From: an uncultured Flavobacteriaceae bacterium
GTDB taxonomy: Bacteria; Bacteroidota; Bacteroidia; NS11-12g; UBA955
Direction: 5' to 3'
Length of the DNA: 64,000 bases
NCBI GenBank assembly: GCA_964450355.1
Contig: CAYVDH010000001.1
Location: 2,767-66,766 of the forward strand
Below are positions 47 to 60,064 of this stretch, in pieces (positions within the stretch are counted from its first letter, which is position 1; each line of letters opens with the position of its first letter). The notes beneath the pieces were generated by a model that saw only the letters and a program-made list of their open reading frames with translations, was not told the origin of the DNA and searched no databases. The position numbers were made by a program, and so were the translations under genes.

Positions 47-625
47 ATGATAAAACCATTTTTCAAGCAAAAAATATTACTCGCTTCTCAAAGCCCAAGA
101 AGACAGTTTTTACTTAAGGAAAGTGGCTTTGATATAGAACCCATAAAAATTGATGTTGAAGAAAATTTTGACACTAAATTAATGGCTCAAGAAATCCCAT
201 TATTTCTAGCTAAAAAGAAAGCCAATGCTTATACAAAAGAAATTGAAAACAATCAATTATTGGTTACTGCCGATACTATAGTATGGCTAAACAACAAAGT
301 TCTAAACAAACCACTAGACATGCATGAAGCCAAAGCCATGTTACAAGAATTGTCCAACAATTCTCATTCCGTATATACCGCTGTCAATGTAAAATCAAAT
401 AATAAAGAAATTAGTTTTTATGATGAGTCTAAAGTGTATTTTAATGAATTAAACGAACAAATAATAAATCATTATCTAGAACACTATTCACCATTAGACA
501 AGGCAGGCGCATACGGAATTCAAGAATTCATAGGCTTTGTTGGCATAAAAAGAATAGAGGGTTGTTATTACAACGTCATGGGTTTCCCTGTGTCTAAATT
601 CATTGAAGAAATCAATAAGCTTTAG
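47..625 (+). CDS. maf: Maf-like nucleoside triphosphate pyrophosphatase (septum formation protein Maf family)
   Basis: ORF 35..625. The first ATG at 47 gives [23 protein letters not shown], which carries the Maf N-terminal LASxSPRR motif. Length of about 190 aa is typical. Confidence 0.85.
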
Positions 626-2090
626 CAAACAGTACCCTTTGAGAGGAAGAACTTCCTGTCAAAACACATTTCCCTTCTTCTTGTTTATTGTTTAAAGGAA
701 TGCATCTGATGGTTGCTTTTGTTAATTCTTTTATTTTCTCTTCAGTTTCGCCAGTGCCATCCCAATGTGCCGACACAAAACCTGCTTTATTTTCTATCAC
801 TTGAACAAATTCATCCCAAGTGTTTACTTCTGTAATGTTTGAATTTCTAAAATCTAAAGCTTTTTGATACATTGTGTTTTGAATTTCAATCATCAATTTT
901 GGAACTGTTTCTAAAAGTTCATCATTGTTTACTATGGATTTGGTTTTAGTATCTCTTCTAGCCAATTCTACTGTTTTATTTTCAACATCCCTAGGTCCAA
1001 TTCCAATCCTTAATGGCACACCTTTCAATTCCCATTCAGCAAATTTAAAGCCTGGCTTATGAGTATCTCTGTTGTCAAATTTTACAGAGAGGCCTATGCT
1101 AGTCAATCGTTTTTTAATGGATTCTGCTTCATCAAACACTTTTGCTTTTTCCTCATCTGTGCGAAAAATAGGCACTATTACCACTTGAATTGGAGCTAAA
1201 TTAGGAGGCAACACTAATCCTTCATCATCGCTATGTGCCATTATCAATGCTCCCATTAATCGAGTTGAAACTCCCCAACTGGTAGCCCATACATACTCTA
1301 ATTTACCTTCTTTACTTTGAAATTTCACATCAAATGCTTTTGCAAAATTTTGTCCTAAAAAATGAGAGGTACCCATTTGAAGAGCTTTTCCATCTTGCAT
1401 CAACCCTTCAATGCAATAAGTGTCATCTGCACCTGCAAATCTTTCATTTTCTGTTTTCACACCTTTTATCACAGGAACAGCCATGTATTTTTCAGCAAAC
1501 TCATTATAAACTTCTAGCATTTGCACAGTTTCAGCAACAGCTTCTTCTTTGGTAGCATGGGCAGTATGCCCTTCTTGCCACAAGAATTCAGCAGTGCGCA
1601 AGAACAATCTGGTTCTCATTTCCCATCTCACAACATTCGCCCATTGATTGATTAGTATAGGTAAATCTCGGTATGATTCAATCCACCCTTTATACGTGTT
1701 CCAAATAATGGCTTCGCTGGTGGGCCTTACCACTAGTTCTTCTGTCAATTTAGCTTCAGGATCTACAATCAATTTACCTTTGTTGTTTGGATCAGTTTTC
1801 AACCTGTAATGAGTCACTACTGCACATTCTTTTGCAAAGCCTTCTGCATTTTTTTCTTCTGCTTCAAATAAACTTTTAGGAATAAATATTGGAAAATAAG
1901 CATTAGAATGACCTGTTTCTTTGAACATTTTGTCTAATTGTTGCTGCATTTTTTCCCAAATTGCATACCCATAAGGTTTTATAACCATGCAACCTTTTAC
2001 GGCTGAATGTTCAGCCAAATCAGCATTTTTCACTAACTGATTGTACCATTCACTGTAATTTTCACTTCTTTTTATTTTGTCGAAAGCCAT
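612..2090 (-). CDS. proS: Prolyl-tRNA synthetase, class II, archaeal/eukaryote-like type common in Bacteroidota
   Basis: 492-aa ORF with N-terminus [46 protein letters not shown], characteristic of the short ProRS form, and a C-terminal ...RVLFAKAY. Confidence 0.95.
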
Positions 2091-2113
2091 TTTTAAATTT
2101 GGAATAAATTTTG

Positions 2114-2121
2114 TATCTTTG
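2114..2121 (+). promoter_or_regulatory. Candidate Bacteroidota -7 promoter element TATCTTTG
   Basis: Matches TAnnTTTG, 49 nt upstream of the ATG at 2171. A second match, TAAATTTG, lies at 2094..2101. Confidence 0.4.
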
Positions 2122-2127
2122 AAAGTG

Positions 2128-2135
2128 CAAAGGTA
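2128..2135 (-). promoter_or_regulatory. Candidate -7 promoter element TACCTTTG for proS
   Basis: The reverse complement of caaaggta matches TAnnTTTG, 37 nt upstream of the proS ATG (2090). Confidence 0.5.
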
Positions 2136-2170
2136 TTTAATCCTTTCACCATAAAAAAATCAAAATCTAT

Positions 2171-3094
2171 ATGAGAAATTCAATCTTTTTATCTTTATTC
2201 TCAATTTTGGTATTTAGTTCTTGTTCAGTAACAAGACAAAAATCTACCATTCAAGGAAGAAATGACGAAGTTTACTTCACTCCTTCTGACACAAGAATTT
2301 ATGCGACCAAAAGCGAAGTTAGATCTTCACAATCTTCTCTACAGAACAACTCCAATACTCAGAGCAATGCTGGCAACTACACCTCTAGTTATTCCAACAG
2401 GCTAAGACATTTTGGTACTCGCTCAAGATTTAATTATAACAATTACCAACCTACACTTGTCCCAACTATGAGTTACAATCCATACACAGGATGGAATTGG
2501 GGCATGAGTTACATGGATCCTAGATTTGGATTTAACTCTGGATTTCACAGCCCTTTTTCAAGGTATTATGGATATCAAATGCCTTATTACGATCCATTTT
2601 TCGCAAACTCTTATTATAATTACAACTCTTTCTACCCTTTTTATACTTACAATCCATACATGTACATGTGCCCTCCACACTATTGGCCAAATTATTATTT
2701 TGGCTATGGTTACGGATATGGGTATGGGTATGGATATAATTATTATGGAAGCAATTATTACAACACCAACAGATATTCGAGCAGCAGACCTACTTTAAAC
2801 AACCAAAGAAGAACAGGCGGAAATAACAACATCCCTGCTTCTAACTCCAACACCAACCAACCTCAAAACAATAGCACCAATTCCAACAATAACAACAATG
2901 GAACTGGATGGTGGAACTCAAGTTCAGGCAGTTCAAATTCAGGCAGTGGAAGTAGCTCTTCTAACAATGGTAGCGGATCTTCTGGTGGATGGTGGAATTC
3001 TGGAAGCGGTTCTACCTCTCCTTCATCTGGTAGTTCCAGCAGCGGTAGTTCTAGTAGTGGAAGCTCCAGCAGTGGAAGCACAAGAAGAAGATAA
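2171..3094 (+). CDS. Lipoprotein with extreme Tyr/Gly/Asn/Ser low-complexity (prion-like) composition
   Basis: Signal peptide plus lipobox (MRNSIFLSLFSILVFSSC), then an aromatic-rich stretch (...YYGYQMPYYDPFFANSYYNYNSFYPFYTYNPYMY...GYGYGYGYGYGYNYYGSNYY) and a Ser/Gly/Asn tail with two GWWNS motifs. It ends in (SSSSG)n-STRRR. The overlapping ORFs on other frames and strands are repeat artefacts. Confidence 0.6.
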   Translation: MRNSIFLSLFSILVFSSCSVTRQKSTIQGRNDEVYFTPSDTRIYATKSEVRSSQSSLQNNSNTQSNAGNYTSSYSNRLRHFGTRSRFNYNNYQPTLVPTMSYNPYTGWNWGMSYMDPRFGFNSGFHSPFSRYYGYQMPYYDPFFANSYYNYNSFYPFYTYNPYMYMCPPHYWPNYYFGYGYGYGYGYGYNYYGSNYYNTNRYSSSRPTLNNQRRTGGNNNIPASNSNTNQPQNNSTNSNNNNNGTGWWNSSSGSSNSGSGSSSSNNGSGSSGGWWNSGSGSTSPSSGSSSSGSSSSGSSSSGSTRRR

Positions 3095-3118
3095 CTAAAT
3101 AATACATTTATTAACCTT

Positions 3119-4642
3119 ATGTTTAAAAACAAAATTTATACCCTTGTGATGGCAATTGCTTTGCCTTTTCAATTGTTTTCCCAATTCGAATCTGATGCCA
3201 TCAGGTTGTCTATGCAAACCCTAGGTTCTTCCGCTCGAAGCTATGGGATAGGTGGTGCATTTGGAGCAGTAGGTGCCGACCCCAGTTCTGCTGCCATTAA
3301 TCCTGCTGGATTAGCAAGATACCGAACAAGTAAATTGTTTTTAAGTACTGCTTTTTACAATGCTAAAACCAAAACGACATTCGGAAACAACGAATTTTCA
3401 AATTCAAAATTCAATTTCAATATCCCAAATTTTGGATTTGTAGCCAACATTAGAGCCGAAGGTTACGAAGAAAAAAAACCTGAAGGGATGGTCAATTTTG
3501 TTTTTGGGTTCAACATGAACAGAATTGCAAATTTCCATAAAAGCACCACTTTTGAAGGGAATAATAAAATCAGCAGCATCACTCAAAACTGGGCTCAAAG
3601 AGCAACCGAAGATGGAGTGATAGCGCCTGAATTCTCAAAATATTCTATCCATCATTTAGCTTTTGAAACTTGGGCTATAGATGCAGATACCAACTCTAGC
3701 ACCCCCGCATATAAATCAGCTTATGGAACTAATGCCATTGATGTAAACCAATCTGGAACAGTGTTAAGTTCTGGCAGCATCAACGATTATAACATCAGCT
3801 TAGCTGGAAATTACAAGCACGTTTTTCATGGTGGAATTTCAATTGGATTAAGAAGAGCTAGATACAAAGAAGAATTTTCTTTTACAGAAAGAGACAATAA
3901 AAACACCACCATAAAAGACATAGAAAGTGTAAACTTTGAATCAAATTTATTGACAAGAGGCAATGGATTTAATGCAAAAATTGGCTTTATTGCAACACCT
4001 ACCGAATTCATACGAATAGGATATGCATACCACTCTCCTACTTTATTTAATTTAACAGATTCCTATTTTTATTCCATTACATCAAAATATGATTTTGGCG
4101 CTAAAAACCCTTTTGGATTAAACAGGCAAAACACCTTTTTAAGAACACAACCGGCAACATATAAATACACCATTACAACACCTTCTCGCAATGTATTTAG
4201 TTTAGCCCTAGTAAACAAAGAAATTGGCTTTATTTCCCTAGATGCTGAAACAGTAAATTACTCTAGTGCAAGAATGAAAGCATCAGACTATGCATTCAAA
4301 GATGAAAATTTAAGTTTATCACGCAACTATAAAAATGTGGTGAATCTTAGAATTGGAGCTGAGCTAATACAAGATGAATTCAGATTCAGAGCAGGTTATG
4401 CCCGTTATCCTAGTCCATACAAAGATGGCTATGTCCCTTTTGTTAAAGATTTGGTTAACAACATTTACACCTTAGGGTTTGGCATTAAAACAGATGATTA
4501 TGCCATAGACCTGGCTTTTGTAAACAGTGGATTTGCAGATTATACAGTACCTTATCAATTATCAAATGGCCAGTATTACACTGCAACAAACAATGTTAGA
4601 GCAAATAATTTCATTATTTCTGCTAGCATTAACATTGATTGA
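3119..4642 (+). CDS. Outer-membrane beta-barrel protein, FadL/TodX/PorV-superfamily-like
   Basis: Signal peptide, then ARSYGIGGAFGAVGADPSSAAINPAGLA, the N-terminal motif shared by FadL/PorV-type barrels. The rest of the 507 aa shows an alternating aromatic/polar pattern. It starts 24 nt after the preceding lipoprotein gene. Confidence 0.6.
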   Translation: MFKNKIYTLVMAIALPFQLFSQFESDAIRLSMQTLGSSARSYGIGGAFGAVGADPSSAAINPAGLARYRTSKLFLSTAFYNAKTKTTFGNNEFSNSKFNFNIPNFGFVANIRAEGYEEKKPEGMVNFVFGFNMNRIANFHKSTTFEGNNKISSITQNWAQRATEDGVIAPEFSKYSIHHLAFETWAIDADTNSSTPAYKSAYGTNAIDVNQSGTVLSSGSINDYNISLAGNYKHVFHGGISIGLRRARYKEEFSFTERDNKNTTIKDIESVNFESNLLTRGNGFNAKIGFIATPTEFIRIGYAYHSPTLFNLTDSYFYSITSKYDFGAKNPFGLNRQNTFLRTQPATYKYTITTPSRNVFSLALVNKEIGFISLDAETVNYSSARMKASDYAFKDENLSLSRNYKNVVNLRIGAELIQDEFRFRAGYARYPSPYKDGYVPFVKDLVNNIYTLGFGIKTDDYAIDLAFVNSGFADYTVPYQLSNGQYYTATNNVRANNFIISASINID

Positions 4643-8827: not shown

Positions 8828-9256
8828 ATGAACAAAATAAACAACACCATATTAAGTCTTGCCTCTGCAATTCTATTTTTTTCTTTTACATCATTCAATA
8901 AACACGAGGTAAAATATGAAATCAATAACCCTACTGACAAAAAAATCTATGGGCTAGGTGACACCATTTTTATCAAAGGAAAAGTGAGCGCTAACGACCA
9001 TTTGCACAATGTGAATATAAAAATCACAAGAGATGATAACCAAACAGAATTGTTTTACAAAAACATACATACTCATAGCAATTCCGAAAACATCAATTTA
9101 TACTATGTTAATTATTTAAGAGAAAATGTTGGATTAACGGTAAAAATTAGCACTTCAGGTCACGATGGAATAGAAAACTCCTCTAAATCCATCCAAGTAA
9201 GCACTAAATACAAAGCCAAAAACACCAAAACAAAAACGAAAAAAAAGTCTAAATAA
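8828..9256 (+). CDS. Hypothetical secreted protein with lysine-rich tail
   Basis: 142-aa ORF with N-terminal hydrophobic signal and C-terminus KAKNTKTKTKKKSK. I recognised no family. Confidence 0.4.
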   Translation: MNKINNTILSLASAILFFSFTSFNKHEVKYEINNPTDKKIYGLGDTIFIKGKVSANDHLHNVNIKITRDDNQTELFYKNIHTHSNSENINLYYVNYLRENVGLTVKISTSGHDGIENSSKSIQVSTKYKAKNTKTKTKKKSK

Positions 9257-32362: not shown

Positions 32363-34462
32363 TTAGTAATATTTGTATCTTTCGTCTTTTACTTTAGCTA
32401 GCTTTTTCAATGAACTAGAAATGGTTTCATACACTCTTGATTTTTGTGAACTGTACAAAGTCATTTTTCTATCTTTCAATGCATCTGTTTTTTCAGGTTT
32501 AGTAAATTGTTCGACATATATCACATGCACTCCATCGTTGCTGGCATATGGGCTTGAAAATGCTTTTTCTTTACATCCCATAATAAATCCTACAACTTTA
32601 GGGTCATTACCTGCTAATGGAACATTTCCAGAAGCAAACACAACACCTTCAAAAGGCTGAGCTATTGATTTCAAAGCTATGGCTAAATCCTCAGGAGATT
32701 TTGCTGTTTTTAATGCTGCATTAAATTGTTCTTTTAATTTTTCAGCTTTTTTCTCTTTGGTAACAAGCTCCGTAACTTTATCTCTAACATCTTCAAGTGT
32801 AGCTGTTCCTTCTTTTCTTATGGCAGTAAGTTTGGCTACTATCAATTGATTTTCTAAACTAAACACTTCAGAAATGTCTCCTTTTTTAGTATCTTCATTG
32901 TACATCCATCTGACAATTTCTTTTGCTTCACTAACACCTTCAAACGTACGAGCACTTTGTTTTATATTTTTTGCTACGCTTTTTGCAATTTTAAATTGAT
33001 TGGTCATTTTTTCAAAATCTACTTTATTGTCTGTAAAACTCATTTTAAATTCTTGAGCTTTGTTATAAGCAGCATCTTCTGTATTTTTTAATGCCGAAAT
33101 GGATTGACGAACTTCAGCAAATTGAACTTGTTTATTTGAACGTGGATCTACCATTTTTAGAATAATTACTCCAAATAATTTTGAACTCAACACCGTAGCA
33201 TCACCATTTTTCATGTTTTTGATGGCTTTGTTTAAATCATCAGTTTGTTCTCCTTCACGGAACCAACCCATGTCATAAGCAGTCCTCAATTTACCTGTTT
33301 CAGATTGTTTGTTTAAATAATCCAATGCATTCGTAGAAGCTTTTAATTCTCCTAATAAAGCTCTTGCCCCTGCAACAGCAGCAGCAGTATCTGCTTTAGT
33401 TGTTCCATTTACAGGCACTTCAGCTCTCACTAAGTGAACAAAACCTATGCTATCAGTTTTAACTTTTTTAACTTTAATTAAACTGTATCCTCCATTGTAA
33501 TAGATAGGTCCCATGACACTGTCAGTTGGGGAATTAAAAATCACATTTTCTACTTCTTTTGGATTTGAACCTCTTCTTACAAATTGATTGTTGTATGGTG
33601 TGTTGCTGCCTTTAACAGTCACAAAAAGTGAATCGTCTGTTGAAGAAGCAAATTCCGAAACCATGTTTTGCATGGATTCTTTAATATCAAGTGTATCTTC
33701 TTTAGATGGCAATATTGGCCACATGGCAAATTCAATATCTCTGCTTGCATCTTGTTTGAACTCCTCTTTGTGTTTGTTTAAATAAGATTTTAAATCAGAG
33801 TCAGTAACTTTTATGTCTTTGTCCTTGATGCTTACATAAGACAAAGTAACAGCCTTACCTTTGGCAGCTAATGTATTGCTATAAAATTCATCTTCAACAT
33901 CTAATTTTGTTGCGTAATACGATTTTGAAACCAACGCATTGTATTTTTTACTTTTTGTTTCTAATACTACTTGTTCAATTAATCTGTCAAATTGTTTCAT
34001 CAATTCCGGTCTTTTTTTAGCCACTTTTTCTTTGAAATCTATGACGTTTTTAGGATTAAACTCCGAACCTTGTTGTGAGAAATTTTGAACAATTACTGGG
34101 TGTGCGTCTTTGGAATACAATAATTTTTTAACTTCAGCATCAGATAAATCAATCCCTAATTTTTCATACTCCAAGTTCACAACTTTATTTTGAAAAAGCG
34201 AATTCCATACCATGGTAGAGATTTGTTCTTTTGCTGCTTCGTCTATTGGTTGACCAGACTCTTCATACATTTTAATGGTTTGATTTAATTTGTTGTCAAA
34301 TTCAACATAATTTATGTTTTTACCATAAATGCTCCCTACATTTCCATCGTTGGATCTTGACCTGTTACTAGTTAAATAATCACTAATTACAAACAAAAAC
34401 AATGAACCTAAAACGATAAAAAGTACCAATCCAGATCTGCGTAACTTATTTAATATTGCCAT
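32363..34462 (-). CDS. PpiD/SurA-like periplasmic chaperone / peptidyl-prolyl isomerase
   Basis: 699 aa with an N-terminal membrane anchor (MAILNKLRRSGLVLFIVLGSLFLFV) and a long SurA-N-like region plus parvulin-like region. Confidence 0.75.
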   Translation of the reverse strand: MAILNKLRRSGLVLFIVLGSLFLFVISDYLTSNRSRSNDGNVGSIYGKNINYVEFDNKLNQTIKMYEESGQPIDEAAKEQISTMVWNSLFQNKVVNLEYEKLGIDLSDAEVKKLLYSKDAHPVIVQNFSQQGSEFNPKNVIDFKEKVAKKRPELMKQFDRLIEQVVLETKSKKYNALVSKSYYATKLDVEDEFYSNTLAAKGKAVTLSYVSIKDKDIKVTDSDLKSYLNKHKEEFKQDASRDIEFAMWPILPSKEDTLDIKESMQNMVSEFASSTDDSLFVTVKGSNTPYNNQFVRRGSNPKEVENVIFNSPTDSVMGPIYYNGGYSLIKVKKVKTDSIGFVHLVRAEVPVNGTTKADTAAAVAGARALLGELKASTNALDYLNKQSETGKLRTAYDMGWFREGEQTDDLNKAIKNMKNGDATVLSSKLFGVIILKMVDPRSNKQVQFAEVRQSISALKNTEDAAYNKAQEFKMSFTDNKVDFEKMTNQFKIAKSVAKNIKQSARTFEGVSEAKEIVRWMYNEDTKKGDISEVFSLENQLIVAKLTAIRKEGTATLEDVRDKVTELVTKEKKAEKLKEQFNAALKTAKSPEDLAIALKSIAQPFEGVVFASGNVPLAGNDPKVVGFIMGCKEKAFSSPYASNDGVHVIYVEQFTKPEKTDALKDRKMTLYSSQKSRVYETISSSLKKLAKVKDERYKYY

Positions 34463-57115: not shown

Positions 57116-60064
57116 ATGAATAAAAATTACAAAATCAATCGCTTCTTTTATTTAGCATTGCTGTTTAGTTTTAAAACAGCGCTATTTGGAAACAGCTATA
57201 TTGCTGCATATATAAGCTACCAATACATTGAAACCAACAAATACAAAATTTCACTTCATGCTGTGATGGATTGTAATAAGTATTCATTGACTCAAAATTA
57301 TGAAGCAATTCAAATTTACTCAAAAACGAAATCCATTTCAGTAAATCAAAAATTATTTTTAAATAACACCACGAATTTAAACAAACCAAATTGCAGATTG
57401 AACTGCTCTTACAAATACTCCTTAAAAGAATATGTTTTTGAAGATACTATTGATTTCTCTAGTTCTTCATATGCGGCCTTCTTAAACGCCTCCGCTTGCG
57501 ATATTTATTTAACAACCATCAGCGCCTCTAGGCAAAGCACAACCGAGATCTATTCTAATTTACTGATAGTAAGCAGTTTCATTGACCTTTGTAATCATCC
57601 AAAAAACAATTCTCCTAAAATTACCAACTTGAACCAATTCTTTGCTCAATGCGGTTATCCATATTATTTTCAAAATTTTACTGAAGAAATTGACAACGAT
57701 GATTTTACATTTGAATTACAACCTGTCCTAAATTTTGGCAATAGCCCAGTGGCATATAATACAGGCTTAGATTATAGCTTTCCTTTGAATATTTATTGTC
57801 CTCCGAATATAGGTGTAAACAATTGCAAACCATTACCCAATGCCAAACCGCCAAGAGGATTTTTCATCAACAACAAACAACCTGAGCTTGTATTTACTCC
57901 TGAGGATTGTGACCAAAGTAGTGTAATTTCTATGCGAATTAAAGAATTTAGAAACGATTCAAACGGCAACCCTGTCCAAATTGGATTCATGGATTACCAA
58001 TATTCGGTATTCGTAATCAGTGAAAACAACATTATACCAAGCATCTCTGCTCCCCAAAAAATCAATTTTTGTTCTAACAATTTAAATGAATTTGAAATAC
58101 AACTATTTGATGTTCTTAATTCTCCTCTACAAACTAGTCTTGATGGAATAGATTATCAAATAAACAACTTACCTAAAGGTGCCAAAATCACAACATTAGA
58201 TAGCACTTTATCTAAAGTCACTTTAAAAGTTAGTTTTACCCCATCTGATACTCAAACAACCTCAGAAAGTAAAAAGTTAGAAATACTTGCCTTTGACAAC
58301 AACTGTACAAGCAAATTTCTTACTAGAAAAACGATTGAATACAACATTTATTCAACCGCCAATATTCAACAAAAAATTAGCCCTTTACAATGTTCTAAAA
58401 TTGGATTTAAATCTACCGTAAACAATTCTTCTGTTCAATGGCAGGTTAAGAAAGACAACCAATTATACTACTTAAGCAAATTACTAGCCGATTCAACACT
58501 ATCGTTAAAAGCTGGCAAATATTTTGTATTGAGCAAAAACAATTTAAACAATGGCTGCATCCTACACACAAAAGACAGCATTGACATAAATTACTCATTG
58601 ATACCGACAGCTTACCTTGGGAAAGACACCTTTGTTTGCTATAATGATTCATTGACATTAAATCCAAATATAACCAACGGAAATGCCCCATACAATTACA
58701 AATGGAATAAAGCCCCATTAATTAACAAAAGCACATACACTACCAAAGGTAATAATCAACCCCTCATTGTTGTGATTACTGACAATAATCAATGTAAATT
58801 TAGTGACACTATCAATGTTAAACCCATGCCTGAAATCAATGTTTTTCACAACTATGACAACAAACCAAAATGCAAAGAAGACAGCATAGATATTTTTTAT
58901 TATTCCAACAAAACAAGTGGAGTGTATTATCAATGGAGTACTCCATACATAAATACCTATTCAAGCACTGCCTCTTCATTCAAATTGAGCTCAGATACAA
59001 CTGTACTTATCAAAATAAAAGCAATTGACAGCATTAGCTCTTGTTATGACCAAACAGAATTTTATTACAAAGTAAATACTTCTCCTGTCCTTTCTAAATT
59101 AACAAACCATGAAAAATGTCAAGGCGATAGCATCTCGCTTACGGCAGATTTAAGCTCTAACAAAATCATTAAAACCCAATGGGAATTAGACAATGTCATA
59201 TCATCAAAACCCGAATTTAAATTAATCAACTTAAGCAAATCAAAAACGGTTTACCTAACTTATACTGACTCTGACAATTGTGTTTACACTGACTCTTCTA
59301 TCATCACAGTCTATAAAATAATTAACAAATCGTATCCTGATATCAATGTTTGTAACAACGCAAACGTGAATTTATTTTCAAATGGGTTTGAGCAAATGAA
59401 ACAAGGCAAATGGAATTACCCTCTAACTAAAATAGACTCTAATGGCAACATCAAACTTAGCAAAAACGAAATCATTGACATCGAATACAGCTCTGATTAT
59501 AACCAATGTTATTCGCTTCAAAAAGCAAGGGTATTTGTCAATAAAGACTCAGTGTATGCGACATTAAAAGCTCTAGTTACAGTAGTTAATGATGGACTTT
59601 ATACTGAATTTACTTTTCCTGAATTTGCTAAAAATGGTCACAGTACTTTTTTTGAAATTTATTATGGGAATGGAACGTATTTCAGAACGAGAAAAACTTC
59701 TCAACCTCATTATTACACTTATTTTCCAATGGATAAAGAATATGCAGCTTACATGGTATCATCTTCACAAAAATGCCGTGACACATTTTTCTTAAAACAG
59801 CCTATTTCTATAGATTACCTTTCAACGAACATACAACACCAAGGTGACATTCCAAGCATATACCCTAATCCCACACAAAATACAATCACCATAGAAATTG
59901 AATTCGAAACCGAATATACAATTGCAGATGTATCAGGGAAAATTATAGAAAAAGGAAAACTGCAATCTGGTAAAAACCACATTGATTTAAAAAACAATGG
60001 GATGTATTTTATTACCCTAATTACTGCCAATGGCAACTACAGATACAAAGTAATAAAAAATTAA
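57116..60064 (+). CDS. Large Cys-rich secreted/adhesin-like protein with T9SS C-terminal sorting domain
   Basis: 982 aa. The C-terminus IYPNPTQNTITIEI...GMYFITLITANGNYRYKVIKN is a T9SS CTD. The central region has repeated Cys-containing modules. Confidence 0.75.
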   Translation: MNKNYKINRFFYLALLFSFKTALFGNSYIAAYISYQYIETNKYKISLHAVMDCNKYSLTQNYEAIQIYSKTKSISVNQKLFLNNTTNLNKPNCRLNCSYKYSLKEYVFEDTIDFSSSSYAAFLNASACDIYLTTISASRQSTTEIYSNLLIVSSFIDLCNHPKNNSPKITNLNQFFAQCGYPYYFQNFTEEIDNDDFTFELQPVLNFGNSPVAYNTGLDYSFPLNIYCPPNIGVNNCKPLPNAKPPRGFFINNKQPELVFTPEDCDQSSVISMRIKEFRNDSNGNPVQIGFMDYQYSVFVISENNIIPSISAPQKINFCSNNLNEFEIQLFDVLNSPLQTSLDGIDYQINNLPKGAKITTLDSTLSKVTLKVSFTPSDTQTTSESKKLEILAFDNNCTSKFLTRKTIEYNIYSTANIQQKISPLQCSKIGFKSTVNNSSVQWQVKKDNQLYYLSKLLADSTLSLKAGKYFVLSKNNLNNGCILHTKDSIDINYSLIPTAYLGKDTFVCYNDSLTLNPNITNGNAPYNYKWNKAPLINKSTYTTKGNNQPLIVVITDNNQCKFSDTINVKPMPEINVFHNYDNKPKCKEDSIDIFYYSNKTSGVYYQWSTPYINTYSSTASSFKLSSDTTVLIKIKAIDSISSCYDQTEFYYKVNTSPVLSKLTNHEKCQGDSISLTADLSSNKIIKTQWELDNVISSKPEFKLINLSKSKTVYLTYTDSDNCVYTDSSIITVYKIINKSYPDINVCNNANVNLFSNGFEQMKQGKWNYPLTKIDSNGNIKLSKNEIIDIEYSSDYNQCYSLQKARVFVNKDSVYATLKALVTVVNDGLYTEFTFPEFAKNGHSTFFEIYYGNGTYFRTRKTSQPHYYTYFPMDKEYAAYMVSSSQKCRDTFFLKQPISIDYLSTNIQHQGDIPSIYPNPTQNTITIEIEFETEYTIADVSGKIIEKGKLQSGKNHIDLKNNGMYFITLITANGNYRYKVIKN

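Follow-up and report, generated by a model that had tools for sequence, protein, structure and literature searches.

We analysed a 64,000-nucleotide (nt) stretch of DNA from an uncultured Flavobacteriaceae bacterium (GenBank assembly GCA_964450355.1, contig CAYVDH010000001.1, positions 2,767 to 66,766 of the forward strand; hereafter the window), focusing on two adjacent genes near its start. The first encodes a lipoprotein of 307 amino acids (aa) rich in Tyr, Gly, Asn and Ser, and the second a predicted outer-membrane β-barrel of 507 aa that we place in the FadL superfamily. We found that these two genes constitute a real, phylum-wide and strongly selected two-gene module of Bacteroidota. An initial annotation, made from the sequence of the window alone, had described the two open reading frames (ORFs) with 24 nt between them, exactly as we find them on the plus strand (Table 1), and could not assign the pair to any described system. 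Our searches of curated families led to the same result: neither protein matched Pfam, the lipoprotein had no match in NCBIfam or PADLOC either, and the barrel gave only sub-threshold matches of the PorV type.

A two-gene module conserved across Bacteroidota

We surveyed 80 genome loci carrying a homologue of the barrel at 28–58% identity. Wherever the region upstream of the barrel gene was intact, it contained a same-strand ORF for a Tyr-rich secreted protein, the exceptions being contig ends or gaps; the synteny across Bacteroidota that the initial annotation had recommended checking was thus found in essentially all of the 80 loci with an intact upstream region. The same annotation had reckoned with an ordinary fatty-acid FadL whose neighbourhood elsewhere never includes such a lipoprotein, whereas we found the FadL-like barrel to be always accompanied by one. 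The gap between the two genes is short (median 37.5 nt; at most 150 nt in 57 out of 62 loci), and proS, the gene for prolyl-tRNA synthetase, lies directly upstream on the opposite strand in 68 out of 82 loci (by tblastn), down to barrels approximately 30% identical; this neighbour was seen in loci L001, L083 and L084 too. Given that the downstream genes differ, the conserved block consists of proS and, divergent from it, the lipoprotein gene followed by the barrel gene.

We assessed whether the low-complexity ORF is a gene at all by comparison with the relative L084, whose barrel is 89% identical to that of the window, using the ratio of nonsynonymous to synonymous substitution rates (dN/dS, or ω; Nei–Gojobori). 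L084 keeps an intact orthologous lipoprotein ORF of 304 aa (L084 1992..2906), and the length differences from the window amount to one 6-nt and one 3-nt indel, both of which keep the frame. At a dS of about 1.2, the lipoprotein and barrel genes had dN/dS values of 0.045 and 0.046, respectively, and proS one of 0.029. Along the lipoprotein, residues 19–42 are 100% identical at a dS of 0.96; a looser spacer at aa 43–64 (ω of 0.24) is followed by aa 65–100 (ω of 0.03), by the Tyr-rich aa 101–170 (ω of 0.005, i.e., 98.6% identity at a dS of 1.15) and by aa 171–215 (ω of 0.04), and the Ser/Gly/Asn tail is again looser, at 87–90% identity. The expectation of the initial annotation that composition would be conserved while sequence drifts was therefore wrong for the Tyr-rich core, with its ω of 0.005 and its position-specific motifs; across the family, it is the tail that varies in length and repeats, unlike the sequence-conserved core.

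An alternative explanation is that the low-complexity ORF is a by-product of repetitive DNA that happens to lie ahead of a barrel gene. Such a view could draw on the shadow ORFs present in other frames of the window locus, and on the public annotation of the closest relatives (L084–L087), whose gene calls give a 174-aa wrong-frame shadow ORF (L084 2389..2913) and miss the true one. We consider it refuted, with next to no probability left, by the dN/dS of 0.045 in the lipoprotein frame, the exclusively in-frame indels, the 6 and 22 stops in the remaining two frames of window positions 2171..3094, the existence of a phylum-wide family with conserved motifs, DNA tandem repeats that are short and imperfect (the GY run accounts for ~37 nt and the SSSSG run for ~45 nt), and the detection of the syntenic Flavobacterium johnsoniae protein by mass spectrometry. 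The initial annotation would have abandoned the gene had there been neither conserved homologues nor expression; homologues were found, and the syntenic protein in F. johnsoniae was seen by proteomics. The lipoprotein ORF is thus a real gene under strong selection. The wrong-frame public calls are also the reason why a direct protein search gave nothing closer than ~50–60% identity, and since gene finders mis-call this low-complexity gene, its family is under-represented in protein databases.

In F. johnsoniae, the same order of proline-tRNA ligase, lipoprotein and FadL/TodX barrel is seen in Fjoh_4939, annotated as proline-tRNA ligase, Fjoh_4940, classified by prediction as a signal peptidase II (SPII) “periplasm-facing lipoprotein, function unknown”, and the adjacent Fjoh_4941, an OMPP1/FadL/TodX barrel (PMC12045153). 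In outer-membrane fractions, Fjoh_4940 and Fjoh_4941 were represented by an average of ~46 and ~19 peptides, respectively, compared with ~45 for the BamG protein Fjoh_1412; upon depletion of TamL, Fjoh_4940 went up 2.6-fold and Fjoh_4941 5.6-fold, and Fjoh_4941 fell in vesicles (PMC12045153). The authors, who treat Fjoh_4941 as the F. johnsoniae FadL homologue, make a single remark about the two proteins, namely that their proximity “might indicate a functional link”, and do not deal with the composition, conservation or mechanism of the lipoprotein (PMC12045153). Within the searchable literature, Fjoh_4940 and Fjoh_4941 appear in no other paper, and beyond this passing mention we found neither the pair nor a Tyr-rich lipoprotein of Bacteroidota described.

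The lipoprotein family and its FadL-superfamily neighbour

Among its 307 residues, the window lipoprotein contains 36 Tyr, 15 Phe, 7 Trp, 67 Ser, 44 Asn and 32 Gly, and its Tyr content of 11.7% is the highest in the window, where other long ORFs have 4.6%. Most of what the initial annotation had said of this protein was borne out: the lipoprotein signal ends in VFSSC, with Cys18 invariant in both family alignments; a (GY)6 run (aa 178–189), two GWWNS motifs (aa 246 and 273), an (SSSSG)3 run (aa 288–302) and a TRRR end are all present; and the last 166 aa are free of acidic residues, which occur only at positions 32, 33, 40, 49, 116 and 141. The description of the remainder as almost purely Y/F/N/G/P/S was a slight overstatement of a real bias, these residues making up 80% of aa 101–200 (where 41 residues are aromatic) and 78% of aa 201–307.

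A direct protein search with the window lipoprotein returned 18 homologues, all of ~260–330 aa, which have in common Cys18, GRTD[DE]VYFT, SNAGNYTSSYSNRLRxFG, NSPFSPYYG..MPYxDPF, RRTG, GWWNS and a C-terminal STRRR. HMMER matches to the family, from a scan of 1.84 billion representative proteins (50% clustering), numbered 246 representatives at E ≤ 1e-3, of which 32 reached E ≤ 1e-10, and the named cluster members that we inspected were all “hypothetical protein” from Bacteroidota metagenome-assembled genomes. Among PDB sequences the lipoprotein matched artificial Gly-Ser linkers only, and hence no relative of solved structure. A hidden Markov model of the close family found 26 out of 62 distant members at E < 0.01, compared with 0 out of 310 composition-matched shuffles, which argues that the similarity within the family is homology and goes beyond shared composition.

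In the 80 genomes, the ORFs ahead of the barrel homologues code for proteins of a common plan (motif counts refer to 63 members). A lipobox was recognised in 62 out of 78 upstream proteins, and approximately 8 members have a signal peptidase I (SPI) site in its place, reading “AQ(E)YDDxYY”; in the non-lipidated variants at L036, L047, L049, L056, L060, L065 and L081, the SPI site is followed by Gln and then at once by DDxYY. Motif 1, DDxY[YF], lies 8–15 aa after the Cys in 51 out of 63 members. The plan further includes an acidic spacer (median net charge −11), motif 2, Y[AS]xR[LI]RRF[HG] (45 out of 63), an aromatic core (per best 100-aa window, the median counts are 41 for Y/F/W and 6 for charged residues) and a long tail of Ser, Thr, Arg, Pro and Asn. 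This tail, in which short repeats are frequent, has a median net charge of +21 and closes with a Gly/Ser stretch ending RR, RK or PR (mostly RR, with some members ending in K). In the window lipoprotein the plan is shortened: the spacer is short and the tail carries almost no charge. In the family alignment, D32 and Y35 of motif 1 are invariant, and Y74, R77 and F81 of motif 2 as well as R213, R214 and R305–307 of the tail are invariant or nearly so. In many relatives (noted at L009, L077, L029 and L066), the basic tail is made up of short repeats of the Ser/Thr-Pro-Ser/Thr-Arg or Lys-Pro-Lys type (e.g., TPTRTRTTPTRSASPSRST and YSTPSRSTSPSRN); these repeats resemble polyanion-binding SPKK-like motifs, which the window tail does not have.

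In one study, a lipoprotein of Bacteroidota was called surface-exposed by the rule that two acidic residues or more lie inside the ~6 positions that follow the Cys (PMC12578637). The window protein falls outside this rule, reading C-SVTRQK after the lipidated Cys with no acidic residue within six positions, and over the same distance 58 out of 63 family members have none and 5 out of 63 have one. With no acidic export signal after the Cys, the default prediction is therefore a periplasm-facing lipoprotein, which goes against the surface matrix that the initial annotation had envisaged.

In its composition, the window protein has the Y/G/S/N(Q)-rich, charge-poor, predicted-disordered segment by which prion-like and FUS-like regions are recognised. 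With FUS- and resilin-type domains, and with the CsgA/CsgG (curli) and FapC/FapF (Fap) systems, it shares a Tyr/Gly/Ser/Asn-rich, charge-poor make-up, predicted disorder and an outer-membrane barrel as neighbour. However, it has no homology to any of them, and it is lipid-anchored, predicted to face the periplasm and constrained in the sequence of its core; moreover, its barrel is FadL-like, unlike CsgG or FapF. A curli- or Fap-like amyloid export system was rejected on the ground that there is no related barrel, and the likeness to prion-like, condensate-forming or dityrosine-crosslinking proteins drawn by the initial annotation is best read as a compositional analogy. A further comparison is with Braun's lipoprotein (Lpp), a coiled coil whose C-terminal Lys is joined to peptidoglycan by L,D-transpeptidases. 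Both are outer-membrane lipoproteins without a surface-export signal and with a conserved basic C-terminus, but the window protein ends in Arg, is a predicted-disordered chain and comes paired with a barrel. We rejected a covalent tether of the Lpp type, as the window protein ends in RRR, and most others in RR, instead of Lys.

More than 980 homologues of the barrel were found, all from Bacteroidota-type genomes and named at most generically (“outer membrane protein transport protein” as well as “OmpP1/FadL family transporter”); among the 240 matches listed, all were from uncultured genomes and bore the name “hypothetical protein” or generic FadL names. The window barrel itself has no Pfam match at E ≤ 1, including to PF03349 (Toluene_X), of which faint or weak precomputed matches exist on some homologues. 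Against PDB sequences, the single barrel sequence gave chance matches only, whereas the family profile matched 3DWO (4e-5) and TbuX (7e-5) and found no BamG or PorV chain at E < 10. Lacking a Pfam match while its profile reaches 3DWO and TbuX, the barrel thus belongs to the superfamily as a remote member, outside the curated family.

This placement agrees with the AlphaFold2 model of the barrel (116 sequences; predicted local distance difference test, pLDDT, 92.8; predicted template modelling score, pTM, 0.87). In a Foldseek search of the PDB, the top 26 matches all belonged to the FadL family (FadL, TodX, CymD and BamG; E between 3e-15 and 8e-9, probability 1.0), with P. aeruginosa and E. coli FadL, TodX and CymD at E between 3e-15 and 1e-11 and target-normalised TM-scores of 0.62–0.67. 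Over the same 116 sequences, G49, G52, N61, P62 and G64 are invariant, and Q22, D26, R29, S31, R40, G46–F48, D54 and R69 nearly so; the hatch segment holds GGAFGAxGAD, and its NPA motif (with A63 in third place) sits within an “INPAGLA” stretch. The mature protein would begin at window position 3182, with the nearly invariant Q22 just past the predicted signal peptide (consensus A-QNExDALRYS, cleaved at the hyphen). Signal peptidase I substrates of Bacteroidota tend to start with Gln (pyroglutamate), which Q22 fits. Compared with the FadL/TodX/TbuX channels (PF03349; PDB 1T16, 3DWO, 3BS0 and 3BRY), the window barrel has the same predicted fold, the NPA hatch and a remote profile similarity, but is only 10–14% identical, has ~7 extra, highly conserved residues at its mature N-terminus, and is about 80–100 residues longer than the solved FadL, TodX and BamG chains that it matched. 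In addition, barrels of the window type are always encoded after a Tyr-rich disordered lipoprotein, whereas classical FadL genes have none. On the evidence of profile and model, the barrel represents a distinct clade of the FadL superfamily.

One way to explain these similarities is that the barrel imports long-chain fatty acids or other hydrophobic compounds as any ordinary FadL does, and that the lipoprotein is at most a loose neighbour with an unrelated role. Its best structural matches are indeed the FadL proteins of E. coli and P. aeruginosa and TodX, the NPA hatch motif is invariant, the NCBI name of relatives is “OmpP1/FadL family transporter”, and the authors of the TamL study took Fjoh_4941 to be a FadL homologue. 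We nevertheless regard this explanation as rather unlikely, because strict pairing, fixed order and short gaps that persist down to ~30% barrel identity would be unexpected for unrelated neighbours, because the two genes have equal dN/dS and both F. johnsoniae proteins go up on TamL depletion, and because the barrel is outside PF03349 and longer than the channels it resembles.

Another explanation is that the two proteins serve a known machine as an accessory module. The β-barrel assembly machinery (BAM) of Bacteroidota includes BamG, a FadL-like barrel to which the surface lipoprotein BamH is bound; an operon codes for the paralogous BamG2 and BamH2, the N-terminus of BamG is extended and conserved, and BamA has a Tyr/Gly/Asn-rich extracellular loop (EL3) whose role is undescribed (PMC12578637, PMC12611786; both 2025). 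There is therefore a precedent for FadL-like barrels as partners of lipoproteins, and PorV and PorQ (NCBIfam NF033709), the corresponding type IX secretion system (T9SS) barrels, likewise belong to the FadL superfamily and hold partners. A BamG/BamH-like or PorV/PorQ-like module would be in keeping with the BamG chains of P. gingivalis, B. thetaiotaomicron and F. johnsoniae (9HJM_F, 9HIV_F and 9N2D_B) at Foldseek ranks 10, 12 and 18, with the conserved N-terminal extension that the barrel, like BamG, has ahead of NPA, with the Tyr/Gly/Asn-rich composition common to the lipoprotein core and the EL3 loop, with a weak PorV_fam match, and with the T9SS cargo encoded by the organism.

Closer comparison makes such a module improbable. 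The family profile that detects proteobacterial FadL homologues finds neither BamG nor PorV, BamG chains score no better than E. coli FadL against the barrel model, and PorV is absent among the top 50 Foldseek matches. The PorV_fam match reaches 33.1 bits against a cutoff of 90 and covers aa 32–84 of the barrel only, where the N-terminal motif is similar, and PorV2 gives 20.6 bits against a cutoff of 325 over the N-terminal ~50 residues only. The F. johnsoniae BamG, Fjoh_1412, is separate from the proS-linked Fjoh_4941, and neither of the BAM purifications lists these proteins as subunits (PMC12578637, PMC12611786). Furthermore, BamH, the partner of BamG in the BAM complex (PDB 9HIV, 9HJM and 9N2D), is folded, surface-exposed and carries an acidic export signal, as BAM surface lipoproteins do, whereas the window lipoprotein is predicted to be disordered and lacks such a signal; and unlike the partners of PorV and PorQ, it has no T9SS C-terminal domain that a Pfam scan could detect. 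We thus rejected both a BamG and a PorV identity for the barrel: of the “FadL/PorV-type” label given in the initial annotation, the FadL part stands, supported by hatch motif and fold, and the PorV part falls. Within a superfamily already known, the barrel forms a new clade; the lipoproteins make up an undescribed family, and the pair is a new variant of the barrel-plus-lipoprotein theme of Bacteroidota.

Layout of the locus and its surroundings

The features of the locus are collected in Table 1. The TAnnTTTG motif occurs three times in the region between proS and the lipoprotein gene, compared with ~0.13 occurrences expected from its density across the window, and 77 of the 80 nt are identical between the window and L084, although dS in the flanking genes is above 1 (saturated synonymous sites). 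These boxes are probably promoters and the region a shared, divergent promoter region; as the boxes at 2114 (+) and 2128 (−) lie close together and face in opposite directions, the two promoters may well overlap. A motif and terminator scan of the spacer between the two genes found neither a −7 box nor a terminator, and the lipoprotein and barrel genes are probably co-transcribed, as the initial annotation had supposed. A scan of the locus for sigma-70 promoters and terminators was uninformative because the promoter consensus of Bacteroidota differs. In the loci of relatives, the proS neighbours are annotated with Pfam tRNA-synt_2b/ProRS-C_1.

Table 1. Features at and around the lipoprotein–barrel pair (positions count from the first nucleotide of the window).
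Feature	Position	Strand	Basis or remark
proS (prolyl-tRNA synthetase)	612..2090	−	ORF; divergent neighbour kept next to the pair; tblastn
proS–lipoprotein intergenic region, 80 nt, shared	2091..2170	.	Bacteroidota-type −7 boxes (TAnnTTTG)
Putative −7 box TAAATTTG	2094-2101	+	TAnnTTTG match
Putative −7 box TATCTTTG	2114-2121	+	TAnnTTTG match; 49 nt ahead of lipoprotein ATG
Putative −7 box TACCTTTG	2128-2135	−	TAnnTTTG match, facing proS
Lipoprotein gene, 307 aa, Tyr/Gly/Asn/Ser-rich	2171..3094	+	ORF; homologues; dN/dS 0.045 vs L084
Signal peptide and lipobox (MRNSIFLSLFSILVFSSC, protein start; ends VFSSC; Cys18)	2171..2224	+	Invariant Cys18
Motif 1, DEVYF (family DDxY[YF])	2264..2278	+	14 residues past lipidated Cys
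Motif 2, YSNRLRHFG (family Y[AS]xR[LI]RRF[HG])	2390..2416	+	Directly ahead of aromatic core
Aromatic, nearly uncharged core, aa ~84-200	2420..2770	+	(GY)6 at 2702-2737
Asn/Ser/Gly-rich tail with RRTG motif	2771..3091	+	Composition, family alignment
GWWNS motifs in tail	2906-2920, 2987-3001	+	
(SSSSG)3 in tail	3032-3076	+	
C-terminal RRR	3083-3091	+	
Spacer between lipoprotein and barrel genes, 24 nt	3095..3118	+	
FadL-superfamily outer-membrane β-barrel gene, 507 aa (predicted)	3119..4642	+	AlphaFold2, Foldseek, family profile, homologues
Mature N-terminus and hatch of barrel, aa 22-69	3182..3325	+	NPA at 3299-3307; best-conserved part

The window comes from an AT-rich Bacteroidota lineage with type IX secretion cargo: a 982-aa protein encoded at 57116..60064 (+) carries a Por_Secre_tail domain (type IX secretion C-terminal sorting domain), and the organism therefore has a T9SS. 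Elsewhere in the window we noted an uncharacterised 420-aa secreted protein with WG-containing beta repeats (PF14903; 9712..10974, −) and, near it, a 142-aa secreted protein with a Lys-rich C-terminus and no family match (8828..9256, +). A further envelope-biogenesis gene at 32363..34462 (−) encodes a 699-aa SurA-like periplasmic chaperone/peptidyl-prolyl isomerase with SurA_N and two rotamase domains, and is unlinked to the pair in other genomes.

Possible roles of the pair in the outer membrane

As to function, we tentatively favour, at a probability of roughly 0.4, a dedicated barrel–lipoprotein complex in outer-membrane homeostasis, in which the lipoprotein faces the periplasm and its core and tail bind envelope material; the contact between the two proteins, the orientation towards the periplasm and the binding targets of the chain are all points that we infer. 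In favour of this reading stand the linkage and selection of the two genes, the conserved architecture of the lipoprotein and its missing export signal, the FadL fold of the barrel, the predicted disorder of the chain, the BamG/BamH precedent, and the expression and TamL response of the syntenic F. johnsoniae proteins. The pair would then be a dedicated and constitutively needed outer-membrane unit throughout Bacteroidota. The N-terminal lipid would fix the lipoprotein in the inner leaflet of the outer membrane, since the protein has no signal for export to the surface, and the motifs DDxYY and YxxRLRRF could keep it beside the barrel or at the periplasmic face of the latter. From there, a largely unfolded chain would hang into the periplasm, beginning with an uncharged, ~40% aromatic core and continuing with a Ser/Gly/Asn tail, which in most relatives is strongly basic and ends in Arg-Arg. 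The chain may be the working part of the pair: its aromatic core could stick to hydrophobic or glycan surfaces (e.g., the cargo or lipid of the FadL channel, the membrane interface or peptidoglycan), its basic tail could grip anionic envelope material, and the pair as a whole would act in the homeostasis of outer-membrane lipids or hydrophobic molecules and in envelope cohesion.

We also modelled the two window proteins as a fusion with AlphaFold2, using an alignment of 18 full barrels and of 13 lipoprotein homologues, the latter over their N-terminal ~165 aa. The barrel was again confident, and aa 18–307 of the lipoprotein had a pLDDT of ~30, the sole exception being a low-confidence hairpin at aa 98–112; in isolation, the lipoprotein chain is thus predicted to be disordered. 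Several observations weigh against the proposed complex. No segment of the lipoprotein docked on the barrel in the fused model, although this counts as a weak negative only, the alignment having been shallow and unpaired and the fusion artificial. The constraint on the core (ω of 0.005) fits a specific folded, bound or assembled state better than a generic sticky polymer, as a low-complexity region free to drift would not be expected to show such extreme constraint on its sequence. The lipid anchor appears to be dispensable, given that ~8 members carry an SPI site instead. The tail of the window lipoprotein is nearly uncharged save for the terminal RRR, as opposed to the strongly basic tails of most relatives. 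Finally, Fjoh_4939–4941 would be the same block, but their orthology goes by gene order and annotation alone.

The initial annotation had proposed a different role, namely an export, anchoring or matrix-forming pair. In this view, the barrel would thread or anchor the unfolded lipoprotein, whose Tyr-rich and basic segments would build an adhesive, cohesive, condensate-like or amyloid-like layer on the cell surface. A chain with a pLDDT of ~30 could pass a narrow pore, and the non-lipidated SPI variants would need a protein partner to stay cell-bound. Other FadL-like barrels of Bacteroidota hold surface proteins (BamH in the case of BamG, T9SS substrates in the case of PorV), one report describes type B T9SS cargo genes followed by genes for anchoring barrels (PMC9143113), and the Tyr/Gly/Asn composition recalls the surface-facing EL3 loop of BamA. 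We judge this role unlikely: the lipoprotein export signal is absent, the F. johnsoniae counterpart is classed, by prediction, as periplasm-facing, no T9SS C-terminal domain was detected, the fused model showed neither docking nor threading, and the lumen of FadL is plugged by the hatch, which is the best-conserved part of the window barrel.

A bolder version of the periplasm-facing complex treats the pair as a hitherto unrecognised envelope system of the whole phylum, in which the lipoprotein is a lipid-anchored, disordered block copolymer (acidic spacer, ~40% aromatic core and polybasic tail) that works with a FadL-type barrel with a lateral gate. At the outer membrane, the polymer might form a phase both cohesive and selective, which would serve either as a hydrophobic conduit or acceptor or as a non-covalent tether of outer membrane and cell wall. 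We put this forward as speculation, and doubt it more than we believe it.

Bacteroidota build their outer membrane differently from Proteobacteria, with a distinct BAM complex, TamL and many surface lipoproteins. To our knowledge, they lack Lpp, and we know of no full explanation in this phylum for lipid and fatty-acid traffic, for the coupling of outer membrane and cell wall, or for lipoprotein sorting. The pair described here is as conserved across the phylum as the adjoining proS, and its function is unassigned. By synteny, its products are abundant in the F. johnsoniae outer membrane and are induced when outer-membrane homeostasis fails. Disorder is predicted along the entire lipoprotein, and yet its ~40% aromatic core is almost frozen in sequence, which points to a specific bound state or assembly that structure prediction misses, and the wrong-frame gene calls in close relatives expose a blind spot of annotation. 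Because the pair is conserved, expressed, tied to outer-membrane stress and directly testable in the genetically tractable F. johnsoniae (fjoh_4940 and fjoh_4941), we consider it worth following up. If the block-copolymer reading were true, an envelope function would be carried out by a sequence-constrained, aromatic, disordered protein with no need for a folded domain. In the conduit variant, lipids and fatty acids on their way across the periplasm would be led along the polymer or taken up by it, and in the tether variant the polymer would fasten the outer membrane to the cell wall in a new way, in a phylum without Braun's lipoprotein.

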